Shown here one piece after another: positions 5,075-63,811 of a stretch of 64,000 bases of DNA; the first letter of the stretch is position 1, and each line of letters starts with the position of its first letter. The stretch comes from Octopus vulgaris (taxonomy: Eukaryota), in contig OX597823.1 in the NCBI GenBank assembly GCA_951406725.2, positions 49,600,001 to 49,664,000 on the forward strand, read 5' to 3'. The notes below the pieces were generated by a model that searched no databases, was not told where the DNA came from, and was given only the letters and a program-made list of their open reading frames with translations. The translations under genes were made by a program, and so were the position numbers.

Positions 5075-5592
5075 TAGAAGTTCCTGTCTTGCAAGGTACT
5101 TGGTGATCCAATCAATACTGGTCCACATAAGAAAACACTGGTGGTGCCAAATAAAATGCACTGGTGCTGGTGCCACATAAAATGCACTAGTGTTTGGTGC
5201 CATGTAAAAAGCACTGGTGCTAGTACCACATAAAAAATACTGGTGTTGGTGCCATGTGAAAAAAAACACTGGTGCTGGTACCACATAAAAAGCACTGGTG
5301 TTGGTGCTATGTAAAAAGCACTGGTACTGGTACCACATAAAAAATAATTGTGATGATGCCAAGTAAAAAACACTGATAATAGTATCATGTAAAAAGCAAT
5401 GGTGGTGGTGCCACGTATAAAGCGCCCAGTACACTCTGTAAAGTGGTTGGCATTAGGAAGAGCATCCAGCTGTAGAAACCGTGCCAAAAAAAGACTACGG
5501 AACCTGGTGTGGCTTCTGGTCTTGCCAGCTCCTGTCACACTGTCAAACCTATGTCAGCATGGAAAAATGGATGCTAAATGATGATGATGATG
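5075..5592 (+). mobile_element. RTE-tailed non-autonomous element with about 11-12 minisatellite units
   Basis: AAAAGCACTGGTGYTGGTRCCAYRT units at 5130-5420 and a (GAT)n tail. Confidence 0.8.
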
Positions 5593-6489: not shown

Positions 6490-7935
6490 CCATCATCATC
6501 ATCATCATCATCGTCGTTTAGCGTCCGTTTTCCATGCTAGCATGGGTTGGACGGTTCTACTGGGGTCTGTGAAGCCAGAAGGCTTCATCAGGCCCAGTCA
6601 AATCTGGCAGTGTTTCTACGGCTGGATGCCCTTCCTAACGCCAACCACTCCGTGAGTGTAGTGGGTGCTTTTTGCGTGCCACCCGCACAGGTGCCAGACA
6701 GAGCTGGCAAACGGCCACGAACGGATGGTGCTTTTTATGTGCCACCGGCACAAGGGCCAGGCGAGGCTGGCAACGGACACGAAACGGGGCGGTGCTGGCA
6801 ACGGTCGCGAAACGGTAAGGTTCTCTTACATGCCACCGGCACTGGTAACACATCTGCAATTTCCATTGATCGATTTCCATTCTGATCCTTACTTGCCTCA
6901 ACGGGTCTTCACAAGTAGAGTTTCGACATGCCACCGGCACTGGTAACACATCTGCAATTTCCATTGATCGATTTTCATTCTGATCCTCACTTGCCTCAAC
7001 GGGTCTTCACAAGTAGAGTTTCGACATGCCGCCGGCACTGGTAACACATCTGCAATTTCCATTGATCGATTTCGATTCTGATCCTCACTTGCCTCAACAG
7101 GTCTTCACAAGTAGAGTTTTGTGTCCCAAGAAGGGAAGGTATGCATACGTAGGCTGGCTCCATCCCAAGTAGAAGGCCACGGGTTATGGACTCATTTGTC
7201 CTGCCGGGTCTTCTCGCGCACAGCACACTTCCAGAGGACTCGGTCTCTAGTCATTTCCTCAGTGAGACCTAAAGTTCGAAGGTCGTGCTTCACCACCTCG
7301 TCCCAGGTTTTCCTGGGTCTGCCTCTTCCACAGGTTCCCTCAACCGCTAGGGTGTGGCACTTTTTCACACAACTATCTTCATCCATTCTCGCCACATGAC
7401 CATACCAGCGCAATCGTCTCTCTTGCACACCACAACTGATGCTTCTTAGGTCCAGCTTTTCTCTCAAGGTACTTACACTCTGTCGATTATGAACACTGAC
7501 ATTACACATCCATTGGAGCATACTGGCTTCATTTCTTGCGAGCTTACGCATATCCTCAGCAGTCACGGCCCATGTTTCACTGCCATGTAGCATGGCTGTT
7601 CGTACACACGCATCATACAGTCTGCCTTTCACTCTGTGCGAGAGGCCTTTTGTCACCAGCAGAGGTAAGAGCTCTCTGAGCTTTGCCCAAGCTATTCTTA
7701 CTCTAGCAGTTACACTTTCAGCACACCCACCCCCGCTACTGACTTGGTCACCTAGGTAACGGAAACTATCAACTATTTCTAGTTTTTCTCCCTGGAAAGT
7801 GACGGAAGTTGGTCTCAGAGCATTTTCAGTGTTTATTGTTCCTGAGCATCTGCCACATACAAAAACCATCTTCCTAGTTAGCCTTCCTTTGACATTGCTG
7901 CACCTCTTATGTGTCCATAGCTTACACTTGGTGCA
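6490..7935 (-). mobile_element. 5'-truncated RTE-clade LINE (RT C-terminal part, 3' UTR, (ATG)n tail)
   Basis: ORF 7192-7869 with FRYLG, MLHGSETW, RRLRWYGHV and RGRPRKTW motifs. 3' UTR ends in (ATG)n. CATCATCAT at both junctions. Confidence 0.92.
6828..7119. repeat. Three tandem 98-bp units inside the RTE 3' UTR
   Basis: ACATGCC...GTAGAGTTT units start at 6828, 6926 and 7024 and are nearly identical. Confidence 0.95.
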
Positions 7936-14215: not shown

Positions 14216-14850
14216 ACAATAAATTCAGGGTGAATACTTGATAAGTGTAAGCACCTGTATATGCCAGCTAGTAGCAGAGGTGATACAGTAGGGACGGATT
14301 TTCGAAGTCCAATGATACCCTACATACCTATTTGATTATGAAGATTTACAAACATACTTTCTCAGTGAAACTCAATACACTCACCATTATAGATAATACC
14401 AAATGTACATTTTTGGATTTTTCATAATGTGATGTAAGTCTTTGGTATAGCAATTGCATGTGGCTGAAGAGAGCTTTAAACCATCTGTTATGCCGATTAT
14501 ACATTGATGTAAGAATAGGTTGTTTTATAAAGCTTGAAACACATAGCAAAATTTAGAAATAGCAGTTAAAACTAGCTATTTCACTACCGTAAGAAAATCT
14601 AGCTGTTTCACTACCATAAGAAAATCTTCCAGACAACCCATGCAGGTAAAGAGAAAAAATAGCAAATCCACCCAGCTTTGATTAACTGTATACGCGTTTC
14701 AGAGTTAGAGAGATGTGAAAAATGTAAAATCATATTTCCACTCTATCATTCTCCTCTTCAGTACAGTAATTCAAGATTTTAAATTTGAGAGCACTGCAAA
14801 AATTAAACATACTTATCTGACCAGGCGACATCAGACAACATACATCTAAT
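14216..14850 (-). mobile_element. Hammerhead-bearing cassette, probable Penelope-like solo pLTR
   Basis: Bounded by (TA)n on both sides. Contains the minus-strand hammerhead and an internal 27-bp tandem duplication at about 14573-14627. Confidence 0.55.
14685..14767 (-). ncRNA. Type I hammerhead ribozyme motif, intact core
   Basis: Minus strand reads ACTGTA CTGAAGA GGAG...CTCT GAAA CGCG TA TACAGT. Stem I ACTGTA/TACAGT, stem II closed by G.U, palindromic stem III ACGCGT, GUA triplet with cut between 14691 and 14690. Confidence 0.85.
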
Positions 14851-14876: not shown

Positions 14877-16500
14877 ATAGATGAGGTGGATGCAAACTGC
14901 TGGTCCTGATGGTTTCCCCAGCAATCCTCCTCAAATAGTGTAAGCGTGCCCTGGCAAAACCCCTCTAGATTCTCTTCCAGAGCTTTCTTGCAAATGGCAA
15001 ACTGGCAAGCAAGCTGAAAGAGGGAATAATATGCCCAATTCAGAAAGGGGGAAGCAGAGCAGATGTTAAAAACTATAGGCCTATCTCTCTGACTTCACAC
15101 ATCAGCAAAGTCATGGAACGGATAGTCAGAGGAAAACTAATTGCATTCCTTGAAGAAAATAACTTGCTGAGTGCTACACAGCATGGCTTTCGACCAGGTA
15201 GGAGCTGCCTGACCCAGCTCTTACAACATTATGACTAGATGTTGAGGTAGCTACTCAACAACTCAAATGTGAACGTAATATACCTTGATTGTGCAAAAGC
15301 TTTTGACAAGGTGGATCATGGTATGATATGCCACAAACTGCATGATCTCGGCATTGCTGGAAAACTTGGAGAGTGGTTACATGACTTTCTGAAAGATAGG
15401 AGTCAGGCAGTAGTGGCCACTGAAGCCACCTCTATAAACACACAAATAGTGAGCGGTGTTCCACAGGGCACTGTTTTGGGACCACTGCTTTTTATAATGG
15501 CCCTCTCAGATATACCCTCAAGTGCCTGGATAGTCACCCTTGCAAGCTATGCAGATGATACGAAAGTCTCACAGAAAATACAGAATCCCAGCAATGTTGC
15601 ACACCTGCAGCAGGAGTTGGACTCAATTTACAGATAGGCTGAGGATAATAATATGCAGTTTAATGCTGAAAAATTCCAAGCCCTGTGCTACCAACATCCA
15701 AAACTGAATATGAAACTTACAGGGTACACCAGTCCACAGGGATTTTCAATCCCAGAGCCTAAATCAGTGAGGAACCTGGGTATTGACATGAGTGATGATA
15801 CTACTTTCCAAGTGCACATTACCAAGATAGTGACAAAGTGTAGATGACTGGCTAGATGGATCCTAAGAATATTCAGAACCAGAGATAAGGAAACAATGAT
15901 GGTCCTCTGGTGGACATTCGTCCTCAGCCACCTGGATTACTGCTCAAAGGTATGATCACCCACCAGTGTGAAATTAACAGCGGACCTTGAAGCAATCCAG
16001 AGAAGATTCACAAAGAAGATCGTCTCTTTGCAACAGCTCAGCTACTGGGAAAGGTTGAAACAGCTAAGACTCTACTCCCGGGAGAGAAGATGGGAGAGGT
16101 ATGCAGTAATATATATCTGGAAGATCCTGGAAGTGCCAAATTTTGGCATTGAAAGCTACACCAATGCCAGAACGGGACGACACTGCAGAGTGCCAAAGAT
16201 CCCAGCAATGTCATTGCGCTTCAGGACCAGCTACTGCAACAGCCTGGATTTCAGGGGCCCACAGCTTTTTAATATTCTCCTAAAAGCCTGATGAACCTGC
16301 ACAAAGTAGATGTAGGGGTTTTTAAATCAAAGCTGGACCTCTTCCTGTCGAGAGTCCCAGGTGAACCTACCTCATGGCAAGAGGTGTAAATGAGGTTAGC
16401 TACATCAAACTCCATTCTTCACTAAGTGCCACATATTAGAGGAGGCTCTCAGTAATAATAGTGTAGCAAAACGGCAGTGCATCAGCTGAAACTAGAGAGA
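14877..16500 (+). mobile_element. Decayed CR1-like LINE (RT and 3' end)
   Basis: GPDG, NYRPISLTS, QHGFRPGRSC, YLDCAKAFDKVDH, SGVPQGTVLGPLLF, YADD and ERLKQLRLYS motifs across broken ORFs 15269-16291. Confidence 0.93.
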
Positions 16501-17744: not shown

Positions 17745-17911
17745 AAAGTAAAAAAAAATACAAACTGGGACAAGAACGTGAAACATTTAGAAGACGACAC
17801 AAAAAACACGGATGGGACATTCGAAGCCCTCAATCATCAGTCAAGAACCGGATCATCTTCGCAATTTTGGCTGATTAATCTTGAGATTATTTTATATATA
17901 TATATATATAT

Positions 17912-18571
<660 letters not shown>

Positions 18572-18592
18572 CTATATTTATATATATATATA

Positions 18593-19290
18593 TTGTTTTA
18601 AATATTTAGTTTTAATTACTTGTATTTTAATTTTGCAGTAATGATATACTATAGTTTGTTATTTTTTCTTCTATAAGCTATAATATATTTTCATGGATAA
18701 AATAAATATTTCTATCTATTTATTCTAGTTTTATTTACACCACGTTTTTAATTAGATAAATTTATTATAAACACTATTTCCTACATATTAAGTTTAATGA
18801 TTTAGTTAACAGAATATATTCAATAAGATATTTCATGTTTTTATTTTAAGACATATTGCTGAATTTTTGGGGTTATTTATTGTAAAATTACGTATTTTTA
18901 TATATATTTATATTTTCTTATAAGATAATATACTTACATTTATTTTATTATTTTATTGTTTTTATCTTAGACCTGATGAGTAACTATATTTAAATTGAAT
19001 TGATTTTATTGTTATCAATTTGTAAATATAGCCACGAAACACATGTAGTCTATTTACTAATTATATACTATTTATTTATTATTTCATACATTATTTAGTT
19101 CTAGGTAAATGTTTTATCGTGGTTTAATTTTTTTTCTATATGGTATGATTTAAGTATATCATTGTTGAATTGCTACATAGTGGTTCTTCTCTAGTTTATA
19201 TACATGTATTATATATTGTGAAATTTGATTTAGTATTACTAAATTGAATTTTTCCCTGTAAGCTTGAAATCATATTCCATAATATTATTA
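18593..19290 (+). mobile_element. Very AT-rich hammerhead-bearing cassette, probable Penelope-like solo pLTR/3' UTR
   Basis: Discrete non-coding block bounded by TA-rich microsatellites and containing the 18968-19052 hammerhead. Boundaries approximate. Confidence 0.55.
18968..19052 (+). ncRNA. Type I hammerhead ribozyme motif, intact core
   Basis: Stem I TAGAC/GTCTA. Core CTGATGA 18973-18979. Long stem II: GT/AC, 2x2 mismatch, CTATATTTA/TAAATATAG. GAAA 19036-19039. Stem III AC-ACAT-GT. GUA triplet, predicted cut after 19047. Confidence 0.88.
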
Positions 19291-19477
19291 TTATTATTAT
19301 ACATATTTATACATATACATACACATATATATATATATATATACACACACATATATATATATGCACACACACACACACATATATATATATATACATATAT
19401 ATGTATATACACACACACATATATATATATACACACTGCCATTGTATGTATGTATATATATATGTTTTTCAATTTAA

Positions 19478-20730
19478 AATTTTTCAGCTGCAAAGCTGCA
19501 GTCATTGACTGAGCAATTCCATTATTTGGAACCTCCTCTAATATGTGGCATTTTGTCAATGAGTGAGTTTGATGCTGCTGCTCTTATCTTTGTTTCCTGC
19601 CTTGAGGTAGGCTTGTCTGGAACCTGTAACAGGACGAGATCCAATTTTGTTTTAAAGACACTTACATCCACACCATGCAGGTCTCTCAGGCATTTTGGAA
19701 GAATATTAAAGAGCTGTGGGCCCTTGAAGCCCAAGCTGTTGCAGTATCTGGTCCTGTATTTTGATGGCGATGCTAGGATCTTTGGCTATATGCAGTGGCG
19801 CCCCGTTCTTCAGTTTGAATAACTTTCAATGCCAAAGATTGAAGGAATCTAGGATTTTCTAGATGTATATCATTGCATATCTCTCCTGCCTTCATTCCAG
19901 AGAGAAGAGTTTTAATTCTTTCAGTCTTCCCCAGTAGCTGATGTGTTGCATTGAGAAGATCTTCTTAGTGTAGCTTCGTTGGATTTCTTTGAGTTCCGCC
20001 GTGGATTTTTTATTGTGTGGTGACCATAGTTGGGAGCAATAGTCTAAGCGGCTTAGCACGTATGTCCCCCAAAAGATCATCAATGTCTCCTTTTCTCTTG
20101 TTTTGAAAGTTCAGAGGGTCCATCTAGCCAGCTGTCTGCATTTTATTACCAAATTGGTAATAAGCACTTGGAAAGATGCATCATTGCTTATGTCAATGCC
20201 CAGGTCATGCACTGACTTTAATTCAGGGATTTCAATTCCTCTAGGGCCAGTGTATCCTGTCTGCAAGTTATTTAGCTTTGTATGTTGGCAGCATATGGCC
20301 TGCAATCTTCCTGCATTAAACTGCATATTGTTGTCCTCAGCCCACCTGTATATTGCGTCCAACTCCTGTTGCGGATGTGCAATATTTCCAGGATTTTGTA
20401 TTGTCAGAGAGACTTTTGTGTCATCTGCACAGCTAGCAAGGGTAGCTATCTGAGCAGCCAAGGACATGTCTGAGAGGGCCACTATGAACAGCAGTGGGCC
20501 CAAAACAGTGCCCTGTGGAACACCACTTACTATTTGCATTTCCTTAGAGGTTGCTCCGTTGGCCACTACTGCGTGATGTCTATCCTTTAGAAAGCTGTGC
20601 AGCCATTCTCCAAGTTTTCCGCATATGCTGAGATCATGCAGTTTGTGACATATCATACGATGGTCAAATTTGTCAAAGGCTTTTGTAAAGACGAGATATA
20701 TTACACCTACACTTGAGTCATTAAGCAGCT
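19478..20730 (-). mobile_element. Second decayed CR1-like LINE copy, inverted relative to 14877-16500
   Basis: ORFs 20111-20656 (SGVPQGTVLGPLLF, CADD), 19892-20083 and 19522-19734 are homologous to the first copy. Confidence 0.92.
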
Positions 20731-20855
20731 GTATATATATATATGTATATAGATATAAATGTATATATATATTTCTTTTTTTATTTCATCTGGTTTCAGC
20801 TCATGAGCTGTGGCCATGCTATATGTATATATATAGATATATATGTATATATATA

Positions 20856-22107
20856 TATTGGGTTGGCAACTAACATTTATTGCGTTTTTAAATTTTGCTT
20901 TTTTTTTTTTTTTTTTGAGAATTCTATTTTTGAATCATTTTGGAATGTAATGTGTATTTTTCTAGTTAATTTTAAACTTTTGTTTATTAAAATGGAATGT
21001 CAAGTTAAGAAAAACGAGCATTTTCGACACCTCCTTTTTGTTTTTAATCAAGGTTCTAAGGCCGCAAGAGCTGCTCATGACATTTGTCCTGTGTATAGAG
21101 AGCATGCCATAGCTGAAAGAACCACTTGTAATTGGTAAGCAAAGTTCAAAAATGGAAATTTTGACCTCAAAGACGCACCTCATTCTGGACATCCAGTTGA
21201 CTTTGATGAAGAGCAATTAAACCAACTTTTGGACAAAAATTCCTGCCAAATTACAAGGGAACTGGCAGAGAAAATGGAATGCTCCCACAATGCTATAGAG
21301 AAGCATCTTCACTCGATGGGAGAGGTTCAGAAGTATGGAGCATGAGTTCCGCATACTTTAAGTGACAACAACAAAAATCAACAAGCCACAATCTCCACTG
21401 GTTTGCTTGCTCGTCACCACTCAACTCATGGACACAAGCAATGATTTCTTTACCAAATCATTACTGACGATGGAAAATGGTGCCTATACATTAATATGAA
21501 GCAGCATAAGGAATGGCTTAGCCCTTGTAAACAAGCAACACCGTGCATGAAACAAGTTCTTCATCCGTGTAAAACGATGTTGTCCGTATGGTAGGGCTGG
21601 GAAGGGATTATCCATTATGAATTGCTTGAACGGAACCAAGCAGTCAACGTGGAACACTATGTTCAACAGATGGAATGACTCAACATGGCTATTCAAGAGA
21701 AAAGACCTAATCTGCAACATGGAGTTCTTCTTCTGCATGACAACACCCACCCTCATATCGCCAATATGACCAAGGAAGTCATTCAAACGCATGGCTGGTA
21801 AGTGTTGCTACACCTGCCGTACTCTCCTGATTTGGCACCAACGGATTTCCACCTCTTCGATCTCTTTCAAATGCTATGCATGGAGTTTCGTTCAATCCTG
21901 ATGCAGAATTGAGAGTTTGGTTGGATCAATTTTTCGAGTTGAAATCGGGTGCTTTCTACCAACAAGGTTTTGAAAAACCTTGTTGAATGTTGGGAAGAAG
22001 TTGTAAACAACAAAAGTGAATACATTATTGATTAATTAGTTACTTTTTATTAAACGTTTTAAAAAATAAAAATTTAAAAGACTGGTGGGAACTTAGTTAC
22101 CAACACA
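20856..22107 (+). mobile_element. Near full-length dead mariner (Tc1/mariner DD34D) transposon
   Basis: Left end TATTGGGTTGGCAACTAA within (TA)n. Degenerate right TIR TTAGTTACCAACACA. About 1.25 kb, enclosing a transposase pseudogene. Confidence 0.9.
20992..22035 (+). pseudogene. Mariner transposase pseudogene
   Basis: MECQVKKNEHFRHLL...*VPHTL (WVPHEL)...IITDDGKW (TGDEKW)...LLLHDN...YSPDLAPTDFHLF...YIID*. Several in-frame stops and late frameshifts. Confidence 0.92.
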
Positions 22108-22557
22108 CCCCACATAGGCTTTCCCCACCTCCCCACAACATCACACCACACTACACTACACCATTACACATCACATATACATACACACATCCAGACCACC
22201 AGCCCTCTTTCACATGCACATACATACTCTCTTATGCACACATGCACCTTCATGTTGGGGCAAGGTCACTTGACCCTGTTATCTCCCCTACTATCCCTCT
22301 AGCGTCTAACGTCTGACCTCTAACGTTTGACCTCCGATCTCTGACTTCTCCTGAAATCAGAACGCCATGTTCAATCGTTAGCCCCTACACGCAATTTTTT
22401 TCTCTCCTTATTTCTTTTCTGTGTATCTTTCTGTCGAAGAGCGTAGGCTCGAAACGTAAAAGACTTGTTTTATTTCTATTCCTGAGCGCCATACTAATAC
22501 TTTGTTTGTTTGTACCCCACCTGCCTTCGTCTTTTGTTTATTTTCATAAACCTTCCC

Positions 22558-22560
<3 letters not shown>
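22108..22560 (+). mobile_element. Penelope-like element 3' UTR/pLTR fragment
   Basis: C/A-rich tract, hammerhead-like motif, and a terminus homologous (reverse complement) to 63428-63533, which lies downstream of a GIY-YIG coding end. Ends in (TA)n. Confidence 0.7.
22426..22463 (+). ncRNA. Atypical minimal hammerhead-like motif in Penelope-like 3' end
   Basis: TCTTT CTGTCGA A GAGC-GTAG-GCTC GAAA C GTA AAAGA. Stems I and II are perfect, core has A6 replaced by U plus an extra A, and stem III is reduced to the palindrome ACGT. Confidence 0.6.
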
Positions 22561-22616: not shown

Positions 22617-23120
22617 AGGCAATCCAATGAAGTAATACAAAGAAGATAGCCTCTATGCAGCATACAACCTACTGGGAAAGACTCAATTCATTAAGGCGTA
22701 GGTGAGAAAGATATGCCATAATATACATCTTGAAGATCCTGGAAGCACTTGCCCCAAACTTTGGCATCGAGAGTTACACAAATACTAGAACTGGGCTCCA
22801 CTGCATTGTGCCAAGGACTCCAAAGATTTAGGACAAGATGCTGCAATAGCCTGGGCTTCAATATCCTCCCCAACGACCTGAGAGACCTGCATGGGGTGGA
22901 TGTAGGTGTCTTCAAAATAAAGCTGGACCTATTACTGTCAAGTGTCCCAGATGAACCAACATTGCAGCAGGAGGTGCAGATGAGGGCAGCTGCATCAAAT
23001 TCCCTCAAGCACCAAATGTCAATTCCTAAAAAGCATTTGTGAAGTAAAATTATGTAGCAACACCAAATGGCAGTGCTCTAGCATGGCCACAGCTCATAAG
23101 CTGAAACTAGATATAAAAAA
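22617..23120 (+). mobile_element. Third CR1-like LINE 3' fragment
   Basis: ORF 22749-23042 FNILPNDLRDLHGVDVGVFKIKLD matches the C-terminus of the other copies. 3' tail GCATGGCCACAGCTCATAAGCTGAAACTAG. Confidence 0.88.
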
Positions 23121-29164: not shown

Positions 29165-29761
29165 TCCTATGATGGCTGCCTCTTATGTGTTTAAATGTAC
29201 ACTGTATTTATATGAATAATATAAGTCTATTGACTAAATTTTGTTACACACTAGGCCACTGGTAGTAGAAATTTCTAATATTTCTTATTACCCTTGATAT
29301 TATTAATTATTGATAACTTTTTCTGGATAATTTTCAAATTGAGGGGCCGGCATGTTTATTTACTACCGACAAGGAGCTGCGCTTGCAAAGTAGATTTGAA
29401 AAATTAGAATGTATATACTGGATTGCCATGTGCATATATGTTTAATCTAGGTGAACCTGCTGAAGAAGACTCTGCCTAGCAAATTATTTTATTTGCTAAA
29501 ATAAGTCTGAAACCATGGTCCAGGATTTATGTAGTAGATGTTATTCATTCCCTTCAAAGTTTTATCCCTAATGGTGGCTTGGAATTTAACTGTTCTTTCT
29601 GGCATGCAAGGAGTCCTATGATGGAGGCCTCTTATGTGTTTAAATGTACACTGTATTTATATGAATAATATACAGTTTATTGACTAAATTTTTTTTACAT
29701 GCTAGGCCACTGGTAGTAGAAATTTCTAACATTTCTTATTACCCTTGATATTATTAATTAT
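29165..29761 (+). mobile_element. Terminally redundant hammerhead-bearing non-coding element (retrozyme-like or Penelope pLTR-derived)
   Basis: About 146-bp direct repeat at 29165-29310 and 29614-29761 (period 449) flanking a single hammerhead. Both ends abut TA-rich microsatellite. No ORF. Confidence 0.75.
29456..29524 (+). ncRNA. Type I hammerhead ribozyme motif, minimal PLE/retrozyme type, intact core
   Basis: Stem I CCTG/CAGG. Core CTGAAGA 29460-29466. Stem II AGACT/AGTCT extended by TAGCAAAT/ATTTGCTA. GAAA 29509-29512. Palindromic stem III ACCATGGT. GUC triplet, predicted cut after 29520. Confidence 0.88.
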
Positions 29762-30470: not shown

Positions 30471-33400
30471 TTTTGTTTTTTCTCTCTTTAAATTTCATTT
30501 TGAGCTTTCAGCTTTTTGGAAGAGATTGGCTTAGCATTTGATAGTTCCTGTATAACTTTTACCAAACATGGCCTCTTTTCTTTCTCCTCTTGCTAGTATG
30601 CTAAGAAGCGAAGCAAAATGAAAGGAGACACCAAAAATAGGATGTTTGTTTCCTAAAAGTGATGAACTAGAGAAAAATATTAAATGACCTTTTATTAGGT
30701 CAATATTAGAATTTCTTCAACATTTTCTAAAGAGTTCTATTGGGAATTGTTTAAGCTAAGTAAGCAGTATCTGCACCTTACTATTAGTGCACCAAAAAGC
30801 TTCAGGCTCGAGATATTTGTAACTATGTAAGGAATTCCATAGAATAATCTGCCAGTGTCCAATAAAAGAACAAAGGAATCATTGAAGCAACAACATATAA
30901 AGACTATGGAAAAGTTCTGCACAATCTCAGATGATTTGTTTAACCTCATTGAGTTTTTTTTTTTTTTGTTATTTCTAAATATTTTTTCCATGCCATAACT
31001 CATACAATTACTCACACACACACACCTCTATATGTGGCTGAAAACACATGAAACAAAATGTAAATTTGATTTCACATTTAAAGTTTCAAATTACAATTAG
31101 ATTTACTGTTTTAAATTACTATTACATCACCCATCAGTTATAACGAAATAAGGCGTTGGGGATTTTTATACTTTTCCATTTTAATTTGACCATTTAACTT
31201 GCAAATAGAATAACCATTTGCTAGAGATATGTGCAGAAATATAAAAAGGTAACTTTTTTGTTAATCATGAAATCATTATATCTTTATTAAATTTCTAAAA
31301 ATTCATGATATTTACAAATGTATCTAATTTTGATAATATCCAACATAACTATTAGCTTATTTTAATAATAATTAAATTGTAAATACATGTTACAATAATA
31401 TGTTCCACATAAAAAACTATATCCATGATGACATACAAAAAATAATTACTAGACACCCAAATATAATTTTGCTATAAAATATATTTTCCTTAGCCAATGT
31501 TGCCATCAGCATAATTATAATTCTAAAGTAGTACAAATGAATATATGAAGCTCTGAACAATGTGGATGTTCACAATTATGAACACATTATATAATATAGA
31601 CACAATTTCTTCTTTGTTGTCAATGCTTCCTTTACATGGAGATCACAATGGTAATGAGCAGGGCAGGCTTCTTTCAATGTTTCCATCCTTTTATTTGAAT
31701 ATTCTTTCTATTTGGCTATACACCACCTTTTTTTACAATGTTCCACAAGCAATGAGTTCACATCAAGGGATATATATATATATATATATATGGTCATACA
31801 TATACAATATCATTCTCACGTAAAATAGCATTGTTTAAGAAGTAACTGATTGGATGATAAAGACGGAAAAAAAAAAGACACCTGACATGTATGAAGAGTT
31901 AATTTTTCAATGAAATTATATCCAAGAACTGAAGATTAAACTGCAATTCTGTAAAGCACTTTTTACCTGCCTGAACAGTCAGATGTTTGTAAAGACAAAA
32001 TAATAATAATAAAATAAGTAATACTGTCCACACAAAAATATATCTGAAGACAAATACGTTCCATATTACACATTATTACTATTAAAATATGAGGATATAC
32101 ACTACATCCAGTTCTAATATCACATATTTTAAAAAATTTTCGATTTTTGTTATTTTTCTTTGCTGAATTAGCAAATTTGAAACTGCCAATAAGAAAAGTT
32201 ATAATGAGCAAATGACAGAAGAGACAAATATCAAGCTGCTGACAGAACAATTAAGATATAGGGAGCAAACAGGGAAACAATTTGTTTTTTGTCTTTTGTT
32301 AAATATATTTCAGGATTGTTATAAATATGGAAGGGGAGAGGGGCTTCAGAAGTAAATTTTAATTAACCATTTACAGATTTTGTTAAATAAATTGTTTGAA
32401 GACTAACAAGTCTCCACAGATTTTGACAAATTGATGTGATTTGAAGAGTTTGTAGAGGGTAAAGGATAAAATGAAGGAGAAACTTTGTGGTTTCAATGAA
32501 GCATTTTCTTGACTCTCAAATTATTCTTGTGAAAAGGTATCAATTTGGCACATTAAAAATAATAGAAACAAAAGGAGTGCCCAAGTTGATTAATTGTGTT
32601 TCCATTTCAATAGCTCATTCATATATAAATATAAAATAAACTACAAAATGCTCCAGCATGCCAGAAAAGAGAAACTTTTAATAATTCAGGTTTCAACAAA
32701 TAAACAAAATACATAAAAAGACACTATCAATAAATAAATGTTGAGTTGTCCATGGCAAAATTAAGATACTTTTTCTTCTCTTTCATTTTTGTTTACTAAT
32801 GCCTAATTGATACAGATAAATATAAATTCCATAATTAGTTATAATGGTAGTTAATTAGTGATGTATTCACACCAAGAAACATACACACATGCACTTGTGT
32901 GGTTAAATAGTGACCAAAGCATTTACATCAATTAACGAGTCTTTCATTTAATCTAATTCTTCTTGAAAAGAAACCAGGATTTATTACACAGCCTATATAA
33001 AAGTTAACATTTCCACTGATAAAATCACAGATACAAGAGTGACATAATTTTAAGCATTCAAATTTCTTATCAGATAAATAATATTTAAAACAATATAAAA
33101 TTTATTTCTAATTATGTAAAAAACAAATATATATATCAAAGGAAGAAATAACAGTGTCTAAATAAATAAGCATTATTATTATTATTATCATTTTATATAA
33201 GCATGCATTAATGATATTTCACATCTGGAGAGATTGTGAGTAAATCTTATCTAAAAAGTATGGTGTTCTTTAAAACTTTATATTGGCTGGTTATTGTATT
33301 CCCTTTAAGAACCTAATACAAGTTACATGAGTTAAAGAAACTTATAGTAAAAAGTAGGTAAACATTTTTAACAAATATGTTGACTGAAATACCATGTGCA

Positions 33401-44157: not shown

Positions 44158-44200
<43 letters not shown>

Positions 44201-44205
<5 letters not shown>

Positions 44206-44503
44206 ATGATCACGTGACCGACCAGACCATCAGATGTTGCTACACATTGCTGGTCACAATGCATTCGCATTGTTTTAGCCTTCGAATGACGCCACCCCAC
44301 TGGCTAAGCAAGCAGGCCAACAGAAGAGTGAGAGAAAGAGTGGTGAAAGAGTACAGCAGGGATCACCACCTCCTGCCGGAGCCTTGTGGAGCTTTTAGAT
44401 GTTTTTGCTCAATAAACACACACAATGCCCGGTCTGGGAATCGAAACCGCGATCCTACGACTGCGAGTCCACTGCCCTAACCACTGGGCCATTGCGCCTC
44501 TAC
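44201..44503 (-). mobile_element. SINE family C, inserted in (TA)n
   Basis: Close homology to 17912-18208. Confidence 0.88.
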
Positions 44504-46334: not shown

Positions 46335-47664
46335 TAAGTAACAGAGGGACCAGCTATCCGAGGTGACGGTACCTTGGTAGATAAAGCAATTAAGAGTATA
46401 AAGACAGGGAAAGCCCCCAGCCCATCAGGAATTACTGCAGAGATGCTCAAAATATCTGGCAGTGTCAGCTGTAGCCTAGTCACCAGTATAGTTAACCAGC
46501 TGATACATGAAGGAGTCATACCCAATGACTGGTGTAGCAGCATAATAGTCAACTGCTACAAAAGTAAAGGTGATGCTTTAGATACAAATAATCACAGAGG
46601 TATCAAGTTGTTGGATCAGATAATGAAGGTCTCAGAGAGGGTCATAGCCCAACTAATTAGGGATAGAGTCAGTTTAGATGAAATGCAGTTTGGGTTCGTG
46701 AGAGGGAAAAGCACCACCGACGCTATATTTCTGGTAAGACAGCTGCAGGAGAAATACCCAGCCAAAGATAAACCTCTGTACCTGGCTTTCATTGACATGG
46801 AGAAAGCCTTTGACAGGGTGCCCTGATCCCTTATATGGTGGTCAAAAAGGAAACTAGGGATAGATGAATGGTTAGTGAAAGCTGTGAAAGTCATGTATAG
46901 GGATGCTGTGAGTAAGGTGAGGGTTGGCAACAAGTACAGTGAAGAATCCCAGGTAGATGTAGGAGTCCACCAAGGTTCAGTCCTTAGCCCCCTCCTATTT
47001 ATCATAGTCCTCCAGGCAATAACAGAGGAATTCAAGACAGGATGCCCCTGGGAGCTCCTCTAATTCCTCTAATTGCTGAGTGACTATCCGAACCAGAGAA
47101 GAAGCTTCAAGTGTGGAAACAGGGATAAGAATAGAAAAGCCTTAGAATCAACCAAGCTAAAACCAAAGTCCTAATAAGCAGGAAGGCAGGCAAACCACAA
47201 ATTCCTTCAGGTAGATGGCTCTGCTCGATCTGTAGGATGTACCCAGTGTAAACTATGGACACATGAGAGGTGCAGCAATATCAAAGGAAGGCTTACTGGG
47301 AAGATAGTTTTTGTATGTGGCAGATGCTCAGGAGCAATAAACACTGAAAATGTGCAGAGAACAACGTCCGCCACATTACAGGGAAAAAAACTAGAAGCAG
47401 TTGATAACTTCCGTTACCTAGGTGACCAAGTCAGTAGTGTGGGAGAGGGTGCTGAAAGTGTAGCTGCTACAATAAGAATAGCCTGGGCAAAGTTCAGAGA
47501 GCTCTTACCTCTACTGATGACAAAGGGTCTCATGCTCAGAGTAACAGGTAGACTGTATGATGCATGTGTACGAACAGCCATGCTACATGGCAGTGAAACA
47601 TGGACCGTGACAGCTGAGAACATGCGTAAGCTCATAAGGAATGAGGCCAGTATGCTCCGATGGA

Positions 47665-49799: not shown

Positions 49800-50105
49800 A
49801 TGTGAAGGCACATGACCTAATGGCTAGGATATTGCACTCACAATCATTAGATCATGGGTTCAATTCCTGGGCTGGGCAGTGCATTGTGTTCTTGAGCAAA
49901 ACACTTCATTTTACATTGTCCCAGTTCATTCAGCTGTAAGTGGGTAACCCTGGGATGGAATAGCCTTCCATTCAGGCAAACATGTTGGCCTGCTTGCCTA
50001 GTCAGCAGGTTGGTATCATTTGAAAGCTAAAACAATGCGAAGTGCATTGTAACCAGCAATGTATAACAATATCTGATAGTTTGGTTGATGCCATGATACT
50101 GTGAT
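49800..50105 (+). mobile_element. SINE family C relative, older copy
   Basis: tRNA-like head GGGTTCAATTCC and the shared tail GCTAAAACAATGCGAA...CAGCAATGTA. Confidence 0.7.
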
Positions 50106-59419: not shown

Positions 59420-60323
59420 ATAAGCTATCATACTCTAATCTCTTGGTTCCACTCACCCTCTCAGCTGACGAGTCCTTTTCTTGTCTTGCAAGGTCACAGG
59501 TGTTGGGGCCCATGTAAAAGAAAAGCATCTGTGCTGGTGTCACATGAAAAGCATCTGTGCTGGTGTTACGTATAAAGGACCTGTGCTGGTGCCACACATA
59601 AAGCACCTGTGCTGGTGCCACATATTAAGCACCTGTACTGGTACTGCATATTAAGCACCTGTGCTGGTTCCACATATAAAGCACCTGAGCTGGTATCACA
59701 TATAAAGCACCTGTGCTGGTGCCACTTATAAAACACCAGTGCTGGTTCCACATATAAAGCACCTGAGCTGGTATCATGTATAAAGCACCTGTGCTGGTGC
59801 CACATATAAAACACTAGTGCTGGTACCACATATAAAGCACCTGTGCTGGCACCACATATAAAGCACCTATGCTGGTGCCATACATAAAGCACCTGTGCTG
59901 GTGCCACATATAAATCACCAGTGCTGGCACCACATATAAAGCACCAGCACTGGTGTCACATTAAAAAGCACCAGTGCTTGTACTATGCAAAAAGCACCTG
60001 TGCTGGTACCATGTATAGAGCACCTGTGCTGGTGCCACATAAAAAAGTACTAGTGATAATACTATGCAAAAAGCACTGGTGCTGCTGTCACATAAAACAC
60101 CCATGCTGGTGCCATGTATAAAGCACCAGTGCTGTTGGACAATAAAAAGCGCCCAGTATATTCTGTAAAGTGGTTGATGTTAGGAAGGGCATCCAACCAT
60201 AGAAACCATGTCAAAACAGACAACTAGAACCTGGTGCAGCTCTGTGGCTTGCCAAATCCTGTCAAACTGTCCAACCCATACCAGCATGGAAATAGACATT
60301 AAATGACGATGATGATGATGATG
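59420..60323 (+). mobile_element. RTE-tailed non-autonomous element with expanded internal minisatellite
   Basis: Ends CCAACCCATACCAGCATGGAAA...(GAT)n like the RTE 3' end. Internal 26-bp array. Confidence 0.8.
59520..60150 (+). repeat. 26-bp tandem array, about 24 units
   Basis: Consensus TAAAGCACCTGTGCTGGTGCCACATA. Period 26 measured at 59581, 59607 and 59633. No spacers. Confidence 0.95.
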
Positions 60324-63427: not shown

Positions 63428-63811
63428 TAGTGAGAATTTACAAAAAAAACAAAAAACGAAGACGGGTGTGTAAACAACAAACAGATGTATTAGTTTAATG
63501 CTTGGGAAGTGAGAAACTCTTTTACATTTTGAGATGATGGTGTAGGTGCTGGGAAGTGGTCAGTGCTAGTATGTGCAGGGTGGTGTGATGTGGTGTCGTA
63601 TGGTGGTGTTGGGGTGTGGGGGAAGAAGGGTGTGGTCTAAGGGATGAGGTAGGGTGGGATTTTCAGAGATGGTGAGGTTGGAATGTGTAGGGGTGAGGTA
63701 ACGAGGGAGGGGTGATGATGAAGGGAGAAGGTGGGTAAGAGTGAAGAGAGGAAGTAGATGCCAGAGCAAGAGGAGAGGTGGGTGGGAGGACGTAGGAGTG
63801 AGAGTGAGTAG
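63428..63811 (-). mobile_element. Penelope-like element 3' UTR with half of a decayed hammerhead
   Basis: Follows the GIY-YIG stop and is pyrimidine/CA-rich on the minus strand. CTCAAAATGTAAAAGAG is a CpG-decayed version of CTCGAAACGTAAAAGAC at 22448-22464. Ends in TA microsatellite. Confidence 0.7.

Follow-up and report, generated by a model that had tools for sequence, protein, structure and literature searches.

The stretch of octopus DNA considered here contains, within extremely AT-rich sequence, a string of letters with every core nucleotide of a hammerhead ribozyme. This raises three related questions: whether the motif is genuine, what kind of element carries it, and whether this copy is still likely to cut RNA. 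The original prediction singled it out as the best local candidate for retained activity. Below, we address these questions using the whole 64-kb stretch of Octopus vulgaris DNA that was analysed (the window), the contigs of public sequencing runs, and published accounts of comparable elements.

A long-armed type I hammerhead and its neighbors

The motif (hereafter H1) lies at 18968..19052 on the plus strand, as do all of its parts, with a predicted cut at 19047/19048 behind the triplet GUA; these features and the canonical core, as first proposed, were verified by the sequence and by descriptor scans. It has three helices with the open ends in helix I, which is the type I layout. Stem I is made of five Watson-Crick pairs between 18968-18972 and 19048-19052, and is followed by the core box CUGAUGA (C3-A9; 18973..18979) with no additional base ahead of G10.1. 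The latter (18980) pairs with C11.1 (19035) to close a long stem II of 56 nt and about 20 predicted pairs (18980..19035). Next come GAAA (19036-19039) and a stem III of just 2 bp, which includes the pair C15.2 (19040)-G16.2 (19045) and carries the tetraloop ACAU, followed by U16.1 (19046) and A17 (19047), such that the segment from GAAA to A17 spans 19036..19047. All 13 of the 13 core letters (C3-U4-G5-A6-N7-G8-A9, G12-A13-A14, A15.1-U16.1 and H17) were present in the descriptor scans, and the ACAU loop of stem III forms no palindrome in the catalytic register. The unusual length of stem II was borne out, with the 56-nt arm folding at -10.9 kcal/mol, for a z of -3.1 relative to 300 mononucleotide shuffles, but the stem is imperfect beside the core, where two pairs give way to two A-C mismatches forming a 2x2 A-C loop.

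Could such a motif arise by chance in AT-rich DNA? Two results might be read in this way. First, Rfam at gathering level returned no hammerhead match, nor a match of any other kind, in the whole 64-kb window; even with the threshold relaxed to E = 10, 18900-19120 yielded three chance matches and no hammerhead. Second, the unconstrained fold of 18950-19070 does not adopt the hammerhead fold and has a z of only -0.60, with 47 of 200 shuffles being equally good. Against these stand the descriptor scans: when the 698-nt block around H1 was shuffled 20,000 times with dinucleotides preserved, only 5 shuffles matched a loose hammerhead descriptor, and a strict descriptor found three matches in the 64-kb window compared to a mean of 0.02 (maximum 1) in 100 local shuffles. 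As H1 passes these descriptor tests, its missing Rfam match is most likely a limit of the models owing to the long stem II. Further, the letters of the repeat family to which H1 belongs improve both stem II and the stem III palindrome, and two unrelated motifs in the window display the same build with entirely different yet paired stems (both are described below). A chance origin, to which we attach next to no credence, is ruled out by the repeat-family data, and H1 is a genuine type I hammerhead motif.

Constraining H1 to the hammerhead fold costs 2 kcal/mol relative to the minimum in the 85-mer and 5 kcal/mol once 40-nt flanks are added, and the fully constrained fold accounts for 0.6% and 0.01% of the respective ensembles. 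These ensemble figures were kept out of any ranking of activity, since the two unrelated motifs (H2 and H3) fare no better, with shares equal to or below those of H1 in the same folding model, and since this model leaves out the non-canonical contacts of the hammerhead core.

H2 (29456..29524, plus strand) is a long-arm type I hammerhead of an unrelated family, with a 42-nt stem II, a perfect 8-nt palindrome, the triplet GUC and a 5-bp proximal stem II. It belongs to a 449-bp unit that sits between microsatellites at 29165-29761 (plus strand) and has a 148-nt terminal direct repeat (29165-29310 and 29614-29761; 94% identity), an arrangement whose sequence suggests a retrozyme-like insertion of about 1.3 units. 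Past the 5-bp base of its stem II there is an internal loop, the 3' side of which, we presume, resembles the canonical loop 2, and its stem I continues beyond a bulge. H3 (14685..14767, minus strand) is again a long-arm type I hammerhead of an unrelated family, with a 54-nt stem II, a 6-bp stem I and a 6-nt palindrome; its proximal stem II of 4 bp has a G-U closing pair and leads into a 3x3 internal loop, and a strong splice-acceptor-like tract is found 34 nt upstream of it. The position taken by G10.1-C11.1 in H1 is occupied by A-U in H2 and G-U in H3. All three combine a fully paired stem I and a palindrome, each of its own sequence, with a long stem II that is interrupted, and alignment scores among the three carriers are inside the shuffle range, i.e., no homology among them was detected.

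A relaxed scan gave four further matches with core mismatches, of which one, H4 (22426..22463, plus strand), was retained. This is an ordinary minimal Penelope-type hammerhead with a 4-bp stem II, an extra base after A9 and a change of A6 to U; a (TA)n tract begins 100 bp further on, and the 3' part of the segment at 22426-22560 (plus strand) is matched at 70% on the minus strand at 63442-63533. The remaining three, at 32396, 36725 and 17840, were rejected, having imperfect palindromes and no supporting context. All four retained motifs, H1 to H4, lie 100-474 bp ahead of a TA or ATT tract.

The carrier block and its family

The block around H1 (18593-19290, 698 nt) is composed of 18.7% G+C and 49.6% T, and had been described as a roughly 700-bp piece that looks like low-complexity DNA. 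The appearance is real, but the block is in fact a copy of a dispersed repeat family and not low-complexity filler. Parts of 18593-19290 are contained in 20 of the 24 listed sequencing runs, which bear four organism labels and come from ten studies, and none of the 24 contains half of the block's words. Four runs were aligned to 18540-19320 at 80% likeness, using contigs and not raw reads. In three of these (X1, X2 and X4, from three labelled organisms) contigs cover all 29 bins of this region, which provides the motif with homologous copies. The listed contig pieces from these runs measure 130-302 letters and each has 13-40 differing letters; hence, they represent other copies of the family and not the H1 locus itself.

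By contig cover, the carrier is a T-rich, non-coding, dispersed repeat of about 690 bp at 18594..19283 (plus strand), with both ends being approximate. The left end, near 18594, adjoins a (TA)n-rich flank (18575..18593, with no strand assigned), whereas the right end, near 19283, lies in (ATT)n; the 3'-terminal part (19188..19283, plus strand) ends in this (ATT)n followed by (TA)n/(CA)n. The setting is therefore that of an insertion into microsatellites, which is a weak indication here, as the window is full of them. Immediately to the left of the carrier is a short repeat (18345-18574) with five further copies in the window. Across the six frames of the block, the longest open frame has 37 codons and there is no coding remnant. 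Likewise, the 64-kb window holds no second copy of the block, and no terminal repeat or partial tandem or inverted arrangement of it, although solo ends occur frequently in elements of the Penelope type.

The cover over the block is strikingly uneven. Summed contig depth, which is a rough proxy and not a copy number, is 4.0-8.4 times as high at the ribozyme as in the 5' part of the block, with the same shape in all three runs. In the 3'-terminal part it lies far above that of the ribozyme, reaching 17-46 times the ribozyme depth in bins 19215-19268 in the three runs, a value that might be inflated by a 15-pair AU-rich hairpin (about 19221-19253) drawing unrelated short contigs. This rise from 5' to 3' fits the pattern expected if copying begins at a fixed 3' end and tends to stop early. 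As for the last 100 bp (19188-19283), their 17-46-fold depth raises the possibility that they are an end common to a much larger family.

Several other leads on the block were tried and set aside. Joints from about 18594 to 19280, considered as empty-site alleles, were dropped because they rest on 20-21 low-complexity letters, and metagenome matches to a 3'-end 21-mer (8 loci) have alignments of only 22-47 letters and are attributable to chance. A metagenome scan with the ribozyme pattern and a search of viral contigs for the block each gave zero matches.

Probable origin and predicted activity of the H1 copy

The other copies allow H1 to be compared with the family majority. Of 125 difference rows, 40 are listed, and in 28 of these the differing letter is the majority one in each of the three non-RNA runs; thus, the H1 copy is at least 4% diverged from the family majority. 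The 40 of 125 rows listed include no core position, which suggests that the core is conserved across the family. Among the same 40 rows, four majority differences fall inside the ribozyme, at 18982, 19009, 19023 and 19043. At 18982, the family has a G in 91-99% of depth that pairs with C19033 to form the third stem II pair, whereas the H1 copy has an A. At 19043, the family has a G in 79-86% of depth that renders 19039-19046 a perfect palindrome; here, again, the H1 copy has an A, which looks like the outcome of CpG decay. The family letters are represented by 36-68 distinct contigs per run at 18982 and by 54-62 at 19043. The differences at 19009 and 19023 are in or next to the loops of the distal stem II arm. 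At 18969, about one third of the family depth has a G, which retains a G-U pair in stem I.

In the folding model, the closed stem II has -10.1 kcal/mol in the H1 copy and -13.6 in the family form, and the probability of the G10.1-C11.1 pair rises from 0.57 in the H1 copy to 0.93-0.96 with a G at 18982. The in-register stem III duplex has 6 of 8 pairs and -1.2 kcal/mol in the H1 copy compared to 8 of 8 and -10.3 with the family letter, and the best duplex available to the H1 copy (-5.2 kcal/mol) is out of register. A counter-result is that the family letter at 19043, when introduced alone, cuts the probability of the G10.1-C11.1 pair in the monomer to 0.08. Since both family letters improve the predicted fold, we see good evidence that the hammerhead structure was under selection in the parent element. 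The same cannot be read from the intact core at the H1 locus, as a 13-letter core would survive by chance, without selection, with a probability of 0.45-0.59 at 4-6% divergence, i.e., in about half of all neutral copies.

We place a probability of roughly 70% on the following reading: the octopus repeat in which H1 resides, dispersed and non-coding, is likely a 5'-truncated Penelope-like pseudo-LTR, and this particular copy is likely a neutrally decaying relic that is predicted to be a weak cutter. Penelope-like elements are reported to bear type I hammerheads in their terminal repeats, with most of the genomic motifs being single and probably derived from truncated elements; their helix III is short and palindromic, and of the constructs tested the monomer remained uncut while dimers were cut weakly (PMC4209133). 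The consensus given in that work runs from U-rich sequence through a short helix I (3-6 bp), CUGANGAH, a helix II closed by G-C, and GAAAN-palindrome-NUH to AU-rich sequence (PMC4209133); H1 conforms to it apart from the length of helix II and the additional base. Both 5'-truncation and the targeting of microsatellites are described as Penelope traits (10.1101/2021.04.23.441226), and 31 recently active families of Penelope-like elements are reported from O. vulgaris in an account whose main text is silent on ribozymes (PMC13282606).

By analogy with these published elements, the parent would have given rise to a tandem transcript bearing two ribozymes, whose short palindromic stems III would pair with each other. 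The dimer would then cut after GUA to free a unit-length RNA, which the Penelope reverse transcriptase/endonuclease would copy from its 3' end into TA-rich microsatellites. Copying would mostly stop early, leaving solo ends such as the H1 block. Directly observed at this locus are the motif and its microsatellite flanks, the family with its cover rising from 5' to 3', and the letters at which the copy departs from the family majority. In keeping with a Penelope pseudo-LTR, the family majority combines the type I layout with a short palindromic helix III (the H1 copy has one central mismatch), and the family is dispersed and, by the depth gradient in three runs, 5'-truncated with a fixed 3' end. 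The Penelope enzyme and the cleavage as a dimer are inferred by analogy. Three features speak against this reading: H1 lacks the extra base that follows A9 in the minimal consensus, its stem II far exceeds in length that of all 56 listed examples, and a remnant of a Penelope reverse transcriptase (RT) or a GIY-YIG domain is absent from both the block and the 150 frames scanned in the window, where RT pieces sit in other repeats. The low activity attributed to the H1 copy is suggested by its two departures from the family and by the window offering no further copy as a dimer partner; published Penelope hammerheads are poor cutters even as dimers (PMC4209133), and eight of nine Xenopus dimers tested gave no product (10.64898/2026.07.22.740005). 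On the other side, a monomer could still be active despite the change at 19043, given the 2-bp helix III with its tetraloop.

This last point leads to the main rival reading, namely that the family is a non-autonomous retrozyme with a circular-RNA intermediate, a borrowed Penelope enzyme and a monomer-active ribozyme, such that the H1 copy may still cut. We consider it unlikely, albeit the most serious of the alternatives, and the difference between it and the Penelope reading is mostly one of name; retrozymes are themselves reported to derive from pseudo-LTRs (10.64898/2026.07.22.740005). What keeps it viable is helix III: the combination of 2 bp and a tetraloop is the monomer-competent form in invertebrates, permitting monomer cleavage in their canonical type I motifs (PMC7761336, PMC7229834). 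The 690 bp without a coding frame would suit a retrozyme, as would the 1.3-unit layout of the neighboring H2 and the reported range of retrozyme units of 51-972 bp, many of them from pseudo-LTRs (10.64898/2026.07.22.740005). However, the H1 locus shows neither a tandem copy nor a terminal repeat in the 64-kb window, and the depth gradient better matches truncation from a fixed 3' end than permuted circles. As to structure, neither a stem II loop at 4-5 bp from the core of the family form nor a bulged extension of stem I is seen, so that a canonical loop 1-loop 2 contact is not apparent from the secondary structure.

A rather different possibility, raised in the original prediction, is that H1 has been kept active and cuts any plus-strand host transcript, be it an intron or a long non-coding RNA, that runs across it. 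Such cutting could only be in cis. It would be in line with the intact stem I and the full set of 13 core letters, and with H1 being the sole long-arm motif in the window with G10.1-C11.1; however, an intact core is no more than what about half of neutral copies would have, and H1 carries two structural changes relative to the family. Moreover, a Pfam scan of 150 of the 170 non-microsatellite frames of at least 60 aa in the window found no host gene domain and no GIY-YIG domain, although short exons would escape it. We regard this reading as very improbable. The ranking of H1 as the best candidate is fair with respect to its G10.1-C11.1 pair; as a claim of retained activity it is not supported, with H1 departing from its family at the core-proximal stem II pair and at the center of the stem III palindrome, having no second copy in the window for a dimer, and possessing a core that would be expected to be intact in 45-59% of cases under neutrality. 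H2, for its part, has a perfect palindrome, a GUC triplet and a 5-bp proximal stem II.

With regard to transcripts, none of the runs listed as containing part of the block is labelled as RNA. Run X13, which is guessed to be RNA, has contigs over the ribozyme, and two of those listed bridge the cut site. These were not accepted as evidence of expression or cleavage, as they have 9 and 16 differing letters and therefore represent other copies, and as contigs cannot show RNA ends. A signal of A-to-I editing was similarly discarded: A-to-G differences are found at 14 of 72 places in X13 compared to 11-12 of 87-93 elsewhere, which yields nothing citable. A splice-acceptor-like pyrimidine tract with its AG overlaps stem I of H1 (18969-18970) and recalls the precedent of a Penelope intron end in Drosophila virilis (PMC4209133). 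This is a weak lead, as a third of the family depth is without that A.

Relation to known hammerhead systems

The closest known system is that of the Penelope pseudo-LTR hammerheads in which the palindromic helix III is small (Cervera and De la Pena 2014, PMC4209133), exemplified by the Saccoglossus kowalevskii (2), Marsupenaeus japonicus and Aedes aegypti rows in Fig. S3 of that paper. H1 shares with them the type I layout, the CUGANGA/GAAA/UH core, the G10.1-C11.1 pair, the short helix I, the U-rich 5' flank and the occurrence as a single dispersed copy near the 3' end, and in its family form also the palindromic 15-16 region. It differs most in stem II, which has 56 nt and about 20 pairs, whereas none of the 56 motifs listed there exceeds about 8 bp, and thus falls outside the published Penelope descriptor, which provides for a stem II of 3-7 bp and a loop of 3-10 nt (PMC4209133). 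It further differs in having no extra base after A9, and its link to a Penelope RT frame is putative.

The metazoan non-LTR retrozymes (Cervera and de la Pena 2020, PMC7229834; Li, Clavereau and Pollet 2026, 10.64898/2026.07.22.740005) are comparable in being non-coding units with a type I hammerhead and a 2-bp helix III with a tetraloop, and in having dispersed monomers. Unlike them, the H1 block has no tandem repeat and no evident loop 1-loop 2 contact, and its unit exceeds the 150-300 bp of the classic retrozyme form. A cephalopod has already yielded type I hammerheads, with 235 matches to Rfam Hammerhead_1 reported in the giant squid genome (PMC6962438); in contrast to these, H1 scores under no Rfam hammerhead model. 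Among viruses, type I motifs termed long are described as having a stem II of 6-8 bp (PMC13725137). A literature search, which was mostly of open-access texts and without some supplements that possibly list such motifs, found nothing on octopus or long-arm Penelope hammerheads.

The H1 copy itself is of little import: it is a single, worn copy in a repeat family, and motifs of this sort number in the thousands in animal genomes. An extended stem II is known to be tolerated, so a long-arm variant is not surprising in itself; the notable point is its recurrence in three unrelated families within 64 kb. Among the four hammerheads of the window, three have a stem II of 42-56 nt and are missed by the standard models, which implies that the counts of octopus ribozymes probably fall short. 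With a descriptor for long arms, the ends of otherwise unclassified AT-rich repeats could be flagged, and if the structure of the arm were conserved across families, it would offer a testable handle on the role of hammerheads in Penelope-like elements. A much more speculative proposal, which we think improbable, is that long-arm type I hammerheads form a large class in octopus genomes that has escaped cataloguing, comprising several unrelated Penelope-type families unseen by Rfam and the published descriptor, in which the long AU-rich stem II would be a functional module. A-to-I editing is abundant in coleoid cephalopods. In the boldest form of the proposal, the long arm would be an editing substrate, with editing closing the core-adjacent A-C mismatches and the host thereby tuning the folding of the ribozyme.

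The window as a whole is AT-rich animal DNA in which (TA)n tracts and pieces of repeats abound. Among named sequences, the nearest relatives of an RT-associated fragment at 7195-7935 come from Octopus vulgaris (90% identity over 43% of the query) and O. bimaculoides (65-70%). Pfam identified RVT_1 pieces at 14969-15634, 20114-20785 and 46338-47060, a PHD-like piece, and a Mos1-type HTH at 20725-21135 that is a remnant of a mariner-like transposase. Decayed copies of a single RT-bearing retroelement at 15249-16456 (plus strand), 19521-20730 (minus strand) and 22621-23021 bracket the H1 block, the first two of these being inverted relative to each other and about 75% identical. Two arrays of a related 26-bp tandem repeat occur 54 kb apart, at 5124-5426 and 59470-60157. 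Finally, a 300-bp repeat is found at 17900-18203 and 44189-44500 (90% identical), with a partial third copy at 49983-50085, and terminates at a (TA)n tract.
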